A stretch of DNA of 64,000 nucleotides from Escherichia coli (GCF_003790525.1 NZ_CP033635.1); one strand, 5' to 3'. Shown: positions 50,974-55,298, counted from the first letter of the stretch. Translations and numbers: made by a program. Notes: generated from the sequence alone by a model not told the origin.

Positions 50974-52332
50974 TTAATTTCTTTGCGGTAACGTAATCCG
51001 GAACACATTATGCTTATTGAGATAGTGATACGTAGCACTTCCCCCATGTAATTCGGCAATCGCTTTGACTAAAGAAAGGCCTAGTCCCTGACCTACGGAA
51101 TGACGCGAATTATCTCCCCGCCAAAATCTACGGAAGAGTTTTTCAGGCTCATGAATTTTCGTTCCAGGACTGGCGACATCAATATTAAGATAGCCGTTGG
51201 TATCAAGAAAACTGGTTATATGAATATGCGATTTTTCTGGTGAATATCTAATGGCATTAACAATAAGATTCGATAACATTCGTTGCAGTAAAATTTTATC
51301 CGCAAAGATTTGCTGATTGCACTCGACCTTAAAGCAAATCTCTTTCTCGTCTGAAAGGTATTCAAGATAATCCAACAAATTTTCGACTTCCTTATTGAGA
51401 GAAAGCGAGTCCAGTTTCACCAAAACATTGTTTTTATCTGCCCGGGCAAGAAACAGTATGTTCTCTGTTAACCGCGAAATATTTTCCAGCTCTTCAATGT
51501 TACCGGCAATTGTTTTTTGATATTCAGCGATACTTCTGGTTTGACTGAGCGTAACCTGATTCTGACCCAGTAATGCATTAATGGGCGTTCTAAGTTCATG
51601 AGCGAGATCGTCAGCAAATTGACTTAGGCGTTCAAAATCTTTGACTAAGGCTTGATGCATTTTATTCAACGCCTGCCCAAGAGGTTTTAGTTCTCTCGGT
51701 AATGCGCTAACCTCAACAGGCTCCCGGCTATCGTTATAATTCAGCGCTTCCGTTACACCACTCAACTTTTTGATCTCTCGTAATCCCGTTCTGATTAACA
51801 GCGGACTTAATACTGAGCAAAGTACAATGGCGACAATGCAAATTATAATGCTATTAATTTTATACTGTTCAAGCATGTTATGTCTGGCTGAAGCCAATTT
51901 AGCCACAGTAACCGTTAATGATGGCGAAACTTCATCAATATTAATTCGTAAAGCATCTATCTCTGTATCATTAATAATGCTTCTGTAAATGCCAGCTGCG
52001 CTGATTGTCTCACTAGCAGGTATGTTATTTAACATGTCATCACTGACATTCGTCCGGTTAACAATTTTATTGATGCCATCACCATGAATGATCAAGATAT
52101 CCTGACTAACATCCATCATCCGGTTAAAGTACACAGGTAACGTATCTGGATTTACCCCATCAATTAACAACTGCTTGATCTGCGCTGTCCGGTTAATGAG
52201 TGTTGTATCATCGCGCCATTTCAACTCACTTGCCAAGCCATTATAGAGAGTCCATACAATTCCAGCGCCAGCAACAGACAGCAGCAATATAAAAAGCAAG
52301 GTTAAACGGACGGTTATAGATAATCTTTTCAT
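50974..52332 (-). CDS. hprS: two-component sensor histidine kinase (HprS/YedV)
   Basis: 452-aa ORF: two transmembrane segments, HisKA H-box HELRTP, HATPase_c G-boxes; AT-rich. Confidence 0.85.
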   Translation of the reverse strand: MKRLSITVRLTLLFILLLSVAGAGIVWTLYNGLASELKWRDDTTLINRTAQIKQLLIDGVNPDTLPVYFNRMMDVSQDILIIHGDGINKIVNRTNVSDDMLNNIPASETISAAGIYRSIINDTEIDALRINIDEVSPSLTVTVAKLASARHNMLEQYKINSIIICIVAIVLCSVLSPLLIRTGLREIKKLSGVTEALNYNDSREPVEVSALPRELKPLGQALNKMHQALVKDFERLSQFADDLAHELRTPINALLGQNQVTLSQTRSIAEYQKTIAGNIEELENISRLTENILFLARADKNNVLVKLDSLSLNKEVENLLDYLEYLSDEKEICFKVECNQQIFADKILLQRMLSNLIVNAIRYSPEKSHIHITSFLDTNGYLNIDVASPGTKIHEPEKLFRRFWRGDNSRHSVGQGLGLSLVKAIAELHGGSATYHYLNKHNVFRITLPQRN

Positions 52333-53003
52333 TATTTTTTTACCGCTACGAATGAATAGCCCATCCCCCGGATTGTGGCGATTAGCTTTTCAGGAAAAGG
52401 ATCATCAACTTTTGCGCGGAGCCTGCGAATGGCGACATCCACCGTATTGGTATCACTATCAAAGTTGATTCCCCAAATTTCACTCGCAATAACCGTTCTG
52501 GGTATAATTTCGCCAGCTCTGGAGGCCAGTAGCCAAAGTAACTGAAACTCCTTGCGCGTCAGTGTAATACTGATATTGTCCCTGCTCACACTTTGACTAA
52601 CAGAGTCCATTCTTAAACCACTGATTTCTAATGTTGAATTCAAAGCGTGATGTTGCCTTAATTGTGCCCGAACCCTTGCCAGCAACTCAGAAAATGAAAA
52701 AGGTTTTACCAGATAATCATTTGCTCCACTGTCCAGCCCTCTGACTCTGTCATCGACAGAATCCCTTGCAGTAAGGCAAATAACAGGGGTTTGCTTTGCT
52801 GTTCTTAACGTTTGTAAGATCTGCCAGCCATCCATACCCGGAAGCATAATATCCAGAATGATCAATGCATAATCATCCTTCAACGCAAGATAAAGCCCAT
52901 CTCTGCCATCAGAAACGGCATCAATGACATAACCCGCTTCGGAAAGCCCCTGTGTTACCCATTCCTGGGTCCTTTGATTATCTTCAATAAGTAAAATCTT
53001 CAT
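52332..53003 (-). CDS. hprR: OmpR-family response regulator (HprR/YedW)
   Basis: ORF 52332..53114; internal ATG at 53003 gives 223 aa MKILLIEDNQRTQEW...; receiver domain plus winged-helix. Confidence 0.85.
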   Translation of the reverse strand: MKILLIEDNQRTQEWVTQGLSEAGYVIDAVSDGRDGLYLALKDDYALIILDIMLPGMDGWQILQTLRTAKQTPVICLTARDSVDDRVRGLDSGANDYLVKPFSFSELLARVRAQLRQHHALNSTLEISGLRMDSVSQSVSRDNISITLTRKEFQLLWLLASRAGEIIPRTVIASEIWGINFDSDTNTVDVAIRRLRAKVDDPFPEKLIATIRGMGYSFVAVKK

Positions 53004-53135
53004 GAAAATAATATGCCATAAATCATATGTTATAGAAACAGCCTGGTTCATTACAAAATTGTAATGCTGCTGTAAGGTTACCCTGGACGTTTTTTCGCTA
53101 TCCTCAAAACTCATTCAGATGACAAGGATATAAAC

Positions 53136-53549
53136 ATGTTAAAGCGTTATTTAGTACTCTCCGTAGTAACGGCAGCATTTTCATTACCTTCTTTGGTTTA
53201 TGCCGCACAACAAAACATTCTTAGCGTGCACATTTTGAACCAGCAAACCGGAAAACCCGCTGCTGACGTGACAGTCACTCTTGAAAAGAAGGCGGATAAC
53301 GGCTGGTTACAACTTAATACCGCCAAAACAGATAAGGATGGACGAATTAAGGCACTGTGGCCCGAGCAAACTGCGACTACTGGCGATTACCGTGTCGTAT
53401 TTAAAACCGGGGACTATTTCAAGAAACAAAATCTTGAAAGTTTCTTCCCTGAGATCCCCGTTGAATTTCATATTAATAAAGTGAACGAGCATTATCATGT
53501 GCCTTTATTACTTAGCCAATATGGGTATTCAACCTATCGTGGCAGTTAA
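53136..53549 (+). CDS. hiuH: 5-hydroxyisourate hydrolase (transthyretin-related protein)
   Basis: 137-aa ORF with signal peptide and C-terminal YRGS tetrapeptide typical of HIU hydrolases. Confidence 0.85.
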
Positions 53550-53657
53550 TGCATAAATATGTAAAAGCAGATCTCTGCTACTGTTAGGGAGGACACTCCC
53601 TGACAGATTAACAGTAAACGGCTCTTGCTGGCTAACGACAAAAAAGTGTGATGGCTT

Positions 53658-54662
53658 ATGAAAAAGAATCAATTTTTAAAAGAATCAGATGTTACGGCCG
53701 AGTCGGTATTCTTTATGAAGCGTCGACAGGTGTTAAAAGCACTGGGCATCAGCGCAGCTGCACTTTCTTTGCCTCACGCTGCGCATGCCGATCTGCTTAG
53801 CTGGTTTAAAGGGAACGATCGCCCGCCCGCCCCCGCCGGAAAACCGCTGGAGTTCAGCAAGCCTGCCGCCTGGCAAAATAACCTGCCACTGACGCCAGTA
53901 GATAAAGTCTCCGGTTATAACAACTTCTATGAATTCGGGCTGGATAAAGCCGATCCCGCCGCTAATGCTGGTAGCCTGAAAACCGATCCATGGACACTGA
54001 AAATCAGCGGCGAAGTGGCAAAACCATTGACCCTCGATCACGATGATTTAACCCGTCGCTTCCCGCTGGAAGAGCGTATTTATCGTATGCGCTGCGTGGA
54101 AGCGTGGTCGATGGTGGTGCCGTGGATTGGTTTTCCGCTGCACAAATTGCTGGCGCTTGCCGAACCCACCAGCAATGCGAAGTATGTCGCTTTCGAAACA
54201 ATTTATGCACCGGAACAGATGCCTGGCCAGCAGGACCGCTTTATCGGCGGCGGGCTGAAATATCCTTATGTCGAAGGATTGCGTCTCGACGAAGCAATGC
54301 ATCCGCTCACACTGATGACCGTGGGTGTTTATGGCAAGGCGTTACCGCCACAAAATGGCGCGCCGGTACGACTGATTGTGCCGTGGAAATATGGCTTTAA
54401 AGGGATTAAATCGATAGTCAGTATTAAGCTGACCCGCGAGCGTCCGCCAACCACCTGGAATCTGGCAGCGCCTGACGAATACGGTTTTTACGCCAACGTT
54501 AATCCGCATGTTGATCACCCGCGCTGGTCACAGGCTACCGAACGATTTATTGGTTCAGGCGGCATCCTCGATGTTCAGCGCCAGCCAACGCTACTGTTTA
54601 ATGGTTACGCCGACCAGGTGGCATCGCTGTATCGTGGCCTGGATTTGCGGGAGAATTTCTGA
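53658..54662 (+). CDS. msrP: periplasmic methionine sulfoxide reductase, molybdopterin subunit
   Basis: 334-aa ORF with twin-arginine signal ([17 protein letters not shown]). Confidence 0.9.
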
Positions 54663-55298
54663 ATGCGTCTGACAGCAAAACAGGTGACATGGCTGAAAGT
54701 TAGCCTGCATCTTGCCGGATTGTTGCCGTTTCTCTGGCTGGTCTGGGCGATCAATCACGGTGGACTGGGTGCCGATCCGGTGAAAGATATTCAGCATTTT
54801 ACCGGTCGCACTGCACTGAAATTTTTGCTGGCGACCTTGTTAATCACACCTCTGGCACGCTACGTAAAACAGCCGTTATTGATACGCACTCGCCGCCTGT
54901 TAGGCTTATGGTGCTTTGCCTGGGCGACACTGCATTTAACCAGTTACGCATTGCTGGAGCTGGGCGTGAATAATCTGGCGTTATTAGGTAAGGAGTTAAT
55001 TACCCGGCCTTATTTAACGTTAGGTATTATCAGCTGGGTTATTTTGCTTGCTTTAGCGTTTACTTCAACCCAGGCGATGCAGCGAAAACTCGGCAAGCAC
55101 TGGCAACAGTTGCATAATTTCGTCTATCTTGTCGCGATCCTGGCCCCAATACATTATCTGTGGTCAGTGAAGATTATTTCACCGCAGCCGCTCATCTACG
55201 CTGGGCTGGCTGTACTGCTTTTAGCCTTACGGTATAAGAAGTTGCGTTCCCTTTTTAACCGGTTACGCAAGCAGGTTCACAACAAATTATCTGTATAA
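54663..55298 (+). CDS. msrQ: methionine sulfoxide reductase haem-binding membrane subunit
   Basis: 211-aa membrane ORF immediately following msrP. Confidence 0.9.

Follow-up and report, generated by a model that had tools for sequence, protein, structure and literature searches.

The window analysed here is a 64,000-nucleotide (nt) stretch of Escherichia coli DNA (GCF_003790525.1, NZ_CP033635.1), with coordinates counted from its first letter. Its interval 50974 to 55298 holds exactly five genes, hprS and hprR on the minus strand and hiuH, msrP, and msrQ on the plus strand (Table 1), which are the known HprSR (YedVW) two-component system and its divergent target operon, hiuH-msrPQ; we report nothing new on their function. 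We are confident that this known system combines a foreign, mobile cassette with a grafted copy of msrPQ, the original of which has decayed. With less assurance, we favor a more specific account, in which hiuH-msrPQ is a chimera specific to the genus: a duplicate of msrPQ was grafted at its start codon behind the foreign cassette, the copy beside accB decayed into at least two independent relic forms, and the 4.3-kb composite is now also found on large plasmids. No description of the accB relics, the junctions, or the plasmid copies was found in the literature available, and with the cassette and the graft they are a modest addition to a known system; literature searches on relocation or pseudogenes of msrPQ and on a link to H-NS returned nothing relevant.

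Identity of the locus

An initial annotation, made from the sequence alone, had named the five genes correctly. Positions 50900 to 55400 match several RefSeq E. coli chromosomes annotated with these gene names, SMS-3-5 among them, at 100% identity, and the encoded proteins pass their NCBIfam models. HprR (NF008567, 483 bits against a cutoff of 353, residues 1 to 223 on model positions 1 to 223), HiuH (NF011610, 297 bits against 217), MsrP (NF003767, 508 bits against 207), and MsrQ (NF003831, 241 bits against 130) were each assigned to an equivalog, and HprS, which has HisKA and HATPase_c domains, exceeded the cutoff of the heavy-metal sensor kinase subfamily model TIGR01386 (319 bits against 293). 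Gene coordinates and strands confirm that hprSR is divergent from hiuH-msrPQ. Of 5426 complete E. coli genomes, 5420 contain a match to the locus (97 to 100% nucleotide identity across the species); its flanks here are hchA on the left and zinT and yodB on the right. Genes, gene order, regulator box, and the residues Met72, Met153, Cys165, and His245 are the same as in HprSR (YedVW, HypVW) and hiuH-msrPQ of E. coli K-12, with no functional difference; the genomes nearest to the strain studied here are phylogroup-F-like, SMS-3-5 and KFu014 among them.

Composition

The sensor kinase and response regulator genes had been described as AT-richer than the flagellar genes, and by GC content at third codon positions (GC3) they clearly are (Table 1). 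As background for further comparison we took 132 annotated genes, drawn from three 50-kb pieces elsewhere in this genome (mean GC content, 0.505 [SD, 0.061]; mean GC3, 0.537 [SD, 0.094]). Against it, hprS and hprR lie at about the 11th percentile for both GC and GC3, and the background genes with a GC3 below 0.42 are all accessory (bacteriocin-immunity genes and one hypothetical gene by tssD, fimbrial genes and adjacent regulators, and lipopolysaccharide core/waa genes). The Karlin B distance to the pooled background was 0.535 for hprS and 0.577 for hprR (90th to 92nd percentile), whereas a gene for the HprS protein with average codon usage would score 0.217 ± 0.026. The windowed GC and codon usage analyses proposed in the initial annotation thus distinguish these genes from the rest of the genome.

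The AT-rich unit is larger than the two regulatory genes to which it had been ascribed, because hiuH and the spacer as far as the msrP start belong to it too; msrPQ is compositionally normal. The GC content of this block (50974 to 53657) falls in the bottom 1.1% of equal-length windows within the 64 kb and in the bottom 5.9% across the 214 kb sampled. Its lowest-GC parts include the control region (GC content, 0.34 in the 200-bp window 53001 to 53200). Between 53,600 and 53,800, at the msrP start, GC content jumps from 0.39 to 0.57 (200-bp windows), and pooled GC3 is 0.390 in the cassette genes hprS, hprR, and hiuH (815 codons) versus 0.547 in msrPQ (547 codons; z = −5.7, P = 1e-8). A like contrast is seen in Escherichia albertii (cassette GC3, 0.32 to 0.37; msrPQ, 0.49 to 0.51). 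A core locus can nonetheless bear a strong foreign-composition signal, which is a lesson for annotation.

Other genes nearby are also AT-rich, namely, yedS (48261 to 49424, an ompC-like porin gene; GC3, 0.40), zinT (55555 to 56205; 0.31), and yodB (56548 to 57078; 0.40), so that msrPQ forms a GC-normal islet in a low-GC neighborhood at 48 to 57 kb. These neighbors favor a different history, namely, vertical descent within the Enterobacteriaceae, with AT-richness arising where selection is relaxed, expression is low, and mutation is AT biased within a low-GC neighborhood. Set against this, the adjoining msrPQ and hchA are not AT-rich, which argues that the region itself does not impose an AT bias, and the background genes with comparably low GC3 are all of accessory type.

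Distribution and history of the three-gene cassette

Homologs were sought among about 5.8 billion proteins, and the survey of HprS comprised the best 120 matches. Among these, HprS is 94 to 100% identical in E. coli, Shigella, and Escherichia marmotae and 88% identical in E. albertii, and the next matches, from Salmonella, Citrobacter, Pseudescherichia, Intestinirhabdus, and Superficieibacter, are only 49 to 54% identical; none of the 120 falls at 54 to 84%, and Escherichia fergusonii is absent from those that are named. Relative to the Salmonella and Citrobacter copies, identities are 54 and 53% for HprS, 75 and 73% for HprR, and 69 and 70% for HiuH, whereas MsrP is 94.6% identical to that of E. 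fergusonii and 91.0% identical to that of Citrobacter braakii. ZinT is at most 74% identical to its homologs outside Escherichia, and a search with it for an empty hchA-zinT site in E. fergusonii gave no usable named match. An exact HprS peptide-pattern scan of genome contigs returned three near-identical loci only.

The cassette occupies different sites in different genera. In E. coli and E. albertii its neighbors are hchA and msrP, in Salmonella it lies between hpaC and pipD beside Salmonella pathogenicity island 5 (SPI-5), and in Citrobacter amalonaticus it lies between galP and sprT, where it is AT-richer than its flanks (GC3, 0.41 to 0.54 versus 0.60 to 0.69). The last of these sites is empty in E. 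coli, with galP and sprT contiguous in 5425 genomes. On a 548-kb plasmid of Pantoea agglomerans, a histidine kinase gene and hprR are divergent from uraH, with a palindromic box between them as in E. coli; this version is GC-rich (GC3, 0.63 to 0.69) and is followed not by msrPQ but by genes for a haem-binding protein and a glutathione peroxidase (L028, 5709 to 7362), a layout which suggests that the cassette promoter recruits different antioxidant genes in each lineage.

A known relative outside Escherichia is the CopRS-hiuH cassette of Salmonella, in which a related box (CATTACAATTGTGTCATC) holds the same position and Met72 and Met153 are conserved. It differs in its site and in its divergence from the E. 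coli cassette (54% for the kinase, 75% for the regulator, and 69% for HiuH; GC3, 0.50 to 0.54), and msrPQ lies apart from it, between acuI and accB.

From these comparisons we infer that hprS-hprR-hiuH and the box make up a cassette complete in itself, with sensor, regulator, and target, that moves between sites and replicons and whose Escherichia version is compositionally foreign. A horizontal history, or at least one of nonvertical translocation, is likely, and the hint of older horizontal acquisition given by the initial annotation is borne out by composition and by comparative genomics (three sites, plasmids, and 53 to 54% HprS identity).

Several observations weigh against this reading. 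Around 50800 to 55600, no integrase, insertion sequence element, or flanking repeat of at least 14 nt was found, and the nearest tRNA gene is about 2.3 kb past msrQ. No donor emerged from the protein search (best 120 matches). The cassette is GC-rich in Pantoea and intermediate in Salmonella, so that AT-richness belongs to the Escherichia copy and not to the cassette family, and lineage-specific AT drift within Escherichia may be its source. Vertical descent would account for the missing mobility scars at the borders, for a composition that tracks the host in Pantoea and in part in Salmonella, and for a locus that is core in E. coli and syntenic in E. albertii. It fits poorly with three chromosomal sites in three genera, one of them cleanly empty in E. 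coli, with the additional copies on plasmids, and with a protein divergence (53 to 54%) that far exceeds that of the flanking core genes. We therefore regard vertical descent as unlikely and retain a mobile cassette as the preferred explanation.

Relocation of msrPQ

In contrast to the cassette, msrPQ would be an ordinary enterobacterial core pair, with its ancestral home upstream of accB. The order csrD-acuI-msrP-msrQ-accB-accC (acuI is also called yhdH) is found in E. fergusonii, C. braakii, and Salmonella, and in Klebsiella msrPQ lies just upstream of aroQ-accB. Intact msrPQ was found at the accB site in none of 5426 E. coli genomes (none covers at least 80% of the E. fergusonii segment), and a decayed relic of the msrQ 3′ part is kept between acuI and accB in all E. 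coli genomes. In K-12, the acuI-accB gap is 977 bp (L014, 2476 to 3452) and contains about 400 nt homologous to msrQ nt 203 to 600, which are 74 to 77% identical to intact copies and interrupted by stop codons. The corresponding relic in sequence type 131 (ST131; L015, 1661 to 2047) has been labeled a YedZ pseudogene by the Prokaryotic Genome Annotation Pipeline (PGAP). A second variant of the site in E. coli (L017, 2305 to 3340) has an extra open reading frame (ORF) of 276 amino acids (aa), which gave a weak match to DUF1444 only (E = 0.004), 115 nt left over from the 5′ end of msrP, and a shorter remnant of msrQ. As neither variant contains every piece found in the other, the two arose by separate deletions from a fuller ancestor. 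Because the relics overlap sequence that is also present in the functional copy, functional msrPQ arose as a copy and not by excision.

The edges of the copy can be placed closely. By blastn, the segment homologous to accB-site msrPQ begins 2 nt before the msrP ATG (Table 1) and is 84.2% identical over 1594 nt to E. fergusonii acuI-msrPQ-accB and 79.4% identical to C. braakii. On the right, MsrQ ends in a different C-terminal tail, which places the junction inside msrQ; the resulting 636-nt msrQ is common to E. albertii and to the plasmids described below. On the left, msrP stands 108 bp behind hiuH as a copy without its own upstream region, and this arrangement offers a sequence-level reason why msrP of E. 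coli depends on HprSR. The events would then have run as follows. A promoterless copy of msrPQ, starting at the msrP ATG and ending 15 nt short of the ancestral msrQ stop, was joined behind hiuH in the Escherichia lineage and so came under HprSR control, and the original copy at accB then decayed.

Published work on Salmonella shows that CopRS, although encoded beside hiuH, does not control msrP, which is controlled by CpxRA. The difference is explained if E. coli msrPQ lost its own upstream region and uses the cassette promoter. If this is true, periplasmic repair has exchanged its ancestral control (by CpxRA in Salmonella) for that of a sensor of chlorine species and urate hydroperoxide, and the locus illustrates, cleanly and on a small scale, how relocating genes can rewire regulation.

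Other points complicate this history. E. albertii has the fused arrangement and E. fergusonii has msrPQ at the ancestral accB site, and of the two E. fergusonii is usually regarded as the closer relative of E. coli. This combination calls either for coexisting copies with differential loss or for transfer between lineages. Species labels of the E. fergusonii and Citrobacter loci are names on identical proteins, not on the contigs themselves. An exact AccB sequence lookup returned E. coli loci only and no E. albertii accB site, and a neighbor-joining tree of the 376-nt relic was dominated by the long pseudogene branch, so that the duplication is undatable from it. A 2026 preprint describes the five-gene architecture as specific to E. 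coli.

Plasmid copies

All five genes, with their order unchanged, are present at about 89% identity on eleven plasmids (82 to 170 kb) of E. coli and E. marmotae; several multimegabase records labeled as plasmids are mislabeled chromosomes and were left out of this count. The homology spans positions 50974 to 55286, from the hprS stop to the msrQ end, and includes none of the chromosomal flanks. The contrast in composition is the same as on the chromosome (GC3, 0.34 to 0.41 in the cassette versus 0.49 to 0.51 in msrPQ), and msrQ is of the Escherichia 636-nt type. Two plasmids were examined, pRHB24-C12_3 of E. marmotae (95 kb; module at L027, 2425 to 6726), which is conjugative IncFIA/FIB/FII and is the only one with replicon typing read, and pZ1323HEC0300-2 (module at L026, 3317 to 7618). 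In both, the module lies upstream of a site-specific integrase gene and ccdAB, and in the E. marmotae plasmid repB is on the other side.

These copies raise the possibility, which we hold to be doubtful though less so than vertical descent, that the five-gene composite was assembled elsewhere (a plasmid being one example) and entered the hchA-zinT interval as a single 4.3-kb unit; the plasmids would then be the source form. The homology ends exactly at the module on eleven plasmids, one of them of a conjugative type, the msrQ is the Escherichia form, and 89% identity shows that the plasmid module is no recent copy of any chromosome sampled. Yet the plasmid copy shares 89% identity with E. coli and only 84% with E. 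albertii, against about 86% between those two species, so that it nests within the Escherichia radiation, as expected of capture from an unsampled chromosome. Moreover, msrPQ looks native to Escherichia (84% nucleotide identity to the E. fergusonii copy and normal GC content). The adjacent integrase also counts against this origin, as it probably belongs to the ccdAB/resolvase backbone known from F plasmids and not to the module. We read the plasmid copy as a probable capture from an unsampled Escherichia lineage, the reverse direction being possible. Plasmid carriage implies that defense against neutrophil oxidants (hypochlorous acid [HOCl] and urate hydroperoxide) can spread horizontally among Escherichia, which could matter for gut colonization in inflammation.

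Sensing and regulation

The published HprR box and the literature agree with the initial annotation that this is a known oxidative-stress repair module. HOCl, and not hydrogen peroxide, is the main signal of HprS, and Met72 and Met153 form a redox switch in its periplasmic loop; hiuH-msrPQ is cotranscribed, and MsrP switches the sensor off again as feedback (bioRxiv version, J Bacteriol 2022 HprSR paper). HprR binds its own spacer and is thus autoregulated (published work), and urate hydroperoxide is both an inducer and a substrate of HiuH (2026 preprint). Activation by HOCl, N-chlorotaurine, and urate hydroperoxide, and the HprR-dependent induction of hiuH-msrPQ, are known from the literature on K-12 only.

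The residues needed by the published model were all found here. HprS has Met72, Met73, Met100, and Met153 in the periplasmic loop, Cys165, and the phosphoacceptor His245 within HELRTP, and Met72, Met153, and His245 are invariant in four homologs (E. albertii, Salmonella, and Citrobacter kinases). HprR has Asp51 in an IILDIMLPG motif, HiuH has an N-terminal signal peptide and the C-terminal YRGS (…STYRGS), and MsrP has the twin-arginine signal KRRQVLK. In this strain, reactive chlorine species (and urate hydroperoxide, per the 2026 preprint) would oxidize Met72 and Met153 of HprS, which would autophosphorylate on His245 and pass the phosphate to Asp51 of HprR. Phosphorylated HprR would then activate hiuH-msrPQ, and probably hprRS as well, from the box at 53049 to 53066, which CusR would also bind. 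HiuH would remove the oxidant, MsrPQ would reduce periplasmic methionine sulfoxide, and MsrP, by rereducing HprS, would close a negative feedback loop.

A copper or heavy-metal sensor of the CusSR/CopSR type, with an incidental link to msrPQ, is highly improbable. In its favor, HprS passes only the heavy-metal kinase subfamily model, its homologs are often named heavy metal sensor histidine kinase in databases, and the box is common to CusR, which binds it and mediates the induction of msrP by copper (PMC9302797). Against it, the same study found that copper induction depends on CusSR and not on HprSR, and that HOCl induction is HprSR dependent (PMC9302797). HprS also scores only 182 bits against a CusS cutoff of 423 (NF007345) and HprR 255 against a CusR cutoff of 420 (NF007346), HprR meets its own equivalog model, and the methionine redox-switch residues are present. 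CusSR-cusCFBA of E. coli remains similar in its OmpR and heavy-metal kinase families, its palindromic type of box, its divergent layout, and the documented cross-regulation; the signals differ, copper for CusSR and chlorine species for HprSR.

The initial annotation had proposed a search of the divergent promoter for direct-repeat response-regulator boxes, but no direct repeats of any length were found in 53004 to 53135, where the only strong element is a single perfect inverted repeat. This element, CATTACAAAATTGTAATG, agrees at every position with the HprR/CusR box given in PMC9302797 (Fig. 1 legend). No other match occurs in the 64 kb when up to 3 mismatches are allowed (both strands, palindromic; 0.10 expected by chance), and related boxes hold the same position in the Salmonella, Citrobacter, and Pantoea cassettes. 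A scan for consensus sigma-70 promoters and terminators found no promoter-like site within 53004 to 53135, as expected for an activator-dependent promoter; the scan was uninformative, with 14 sites in the region being within the 9.1 ± 3.1 expected from shuffles.

The stop codon of hprR shares 1 nt with the start codon of hprS (TAATG), which suggests translational coupling. A 260-aa version of the hprR ORF, starting at 53114, 37 codons upstream of the true start, was rejected as an artifact, as it crosses the HprR box and the protein model aligns 1 to 223 end to end. Some gene callers overextend hprR in Salmonella too (246 versus 226 aa).

Downstream, the hiuH-msrP spacer folds at −37.2 kcal/mol (z = −5.1 versus shuffles) and contains a stem-loop at 53581 to 53606. 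E. albertii keeps the stem with a different loop. With no U-tract after it, the hairpin does not qualify as an intrinsic terminator; possible roles are processing, stability, or partial attenuation between hiuH and msrPQ. A conserved hairpin 3′ of hiuH was considered as the cassette terminus and rejected, because the E. coli, Salmonella, and Citrobacter hairpins are unrelated.

Table 1. Features of the hprSR/hiuH-msrPQ locus, with composition of its genes and of the flagellar genes
Feature	Position	Strand	GC	GC3	Description
hprS (yedV)	50974-52332	-	0.397	0.380	Sensor histidine kinase, 452 aa
hprR (yedW)	52332-53003	-	0.438	0.406	OmpR-family response regulator, 223 aa
hprR/hiuH divergent control region	53004-53135				132 bp
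HprR/CusR box CATTACAAAATTGTAATG	53049-53066				Arms CATTACAA / TTGTAATG; perfect 8+2+8 inverted repeat, spacer AA
hiuH (yedX)	53136-53549	+	0.418	0.399	Periplasmic transthyretin-like hydrolase, 137 aa
Stem-loop, hiuH-msrP spacer	53581-53606	+			11-bp stem, CTGTTAGGGAG-GACA-CTCCCTGACAG
AT-rich block	50974-53657		0.409		hprS-hprR-hiuH and spacer to msrP start, 2684 bp
msrP (yedY)	53658-54662	+	0.526	0.546	Molybdoenzyme methionine-sulfoxide reductase, 334 aa; abuts msrQ
msrQ (yedZ)	54663-55298	+	0.480	0.547	Haem-binding membrane partner of MsrP, 211 aa
Segment homologous to accB-site msrPQ	53656-55247	+			blastn; from 2 nt before msrP ATG to 51 nt before msrQ stop
Escherichia-specific msrQ 3′ end	55248-55298	+			Different C-terminal tail, 12 aa longer (211 versus 199 aa)
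fli genes (20, pooled)			0.530	0.580	

Other features of the window

The msrQ-zinT spacer has, at 55332 to 55365, what we take to be a repetitive extragenic palindromic (REP)-type element (GCCGGATGCGGCG...CCTATCCGGCCTAC), and the palindrome ATGTTACAATATAACAT at 55502 to 55518, upstream of zinT, resembles a Zur box and is a putative one.

Farther right, genes for tRNA-Ser(CGA) (57648 to 57737) and tRNA-Asn (58729 to 58804) flank mtfA. The match to SMS-3-5 ends at 57709, inside tRNA-Ser, where SMS-3-5 has a lambdoid prophage of about 43 kb; the strain studied here is without that prophage, and mtfA, tRNA-Asn, and yeeJ follow, as in KFu014.

The most AT-rich gene in the window is espR3 (25419 to 26558; GC content, 0.347; GC3, 0.324), which encodes a type III secretion system effector with leucine-rich repeats. 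With an integrase fragment next to it, espR3 makes up a small islet between fliE and yedL, within the flagellar region. Rfam identified the small RNAs DsrA (39437 to 39522, minus strand) and RseX (47858 to 47947, plus strand), and rcsA (38178 to 38801), near DsrA, is AT-rich (GC content, 0.377).

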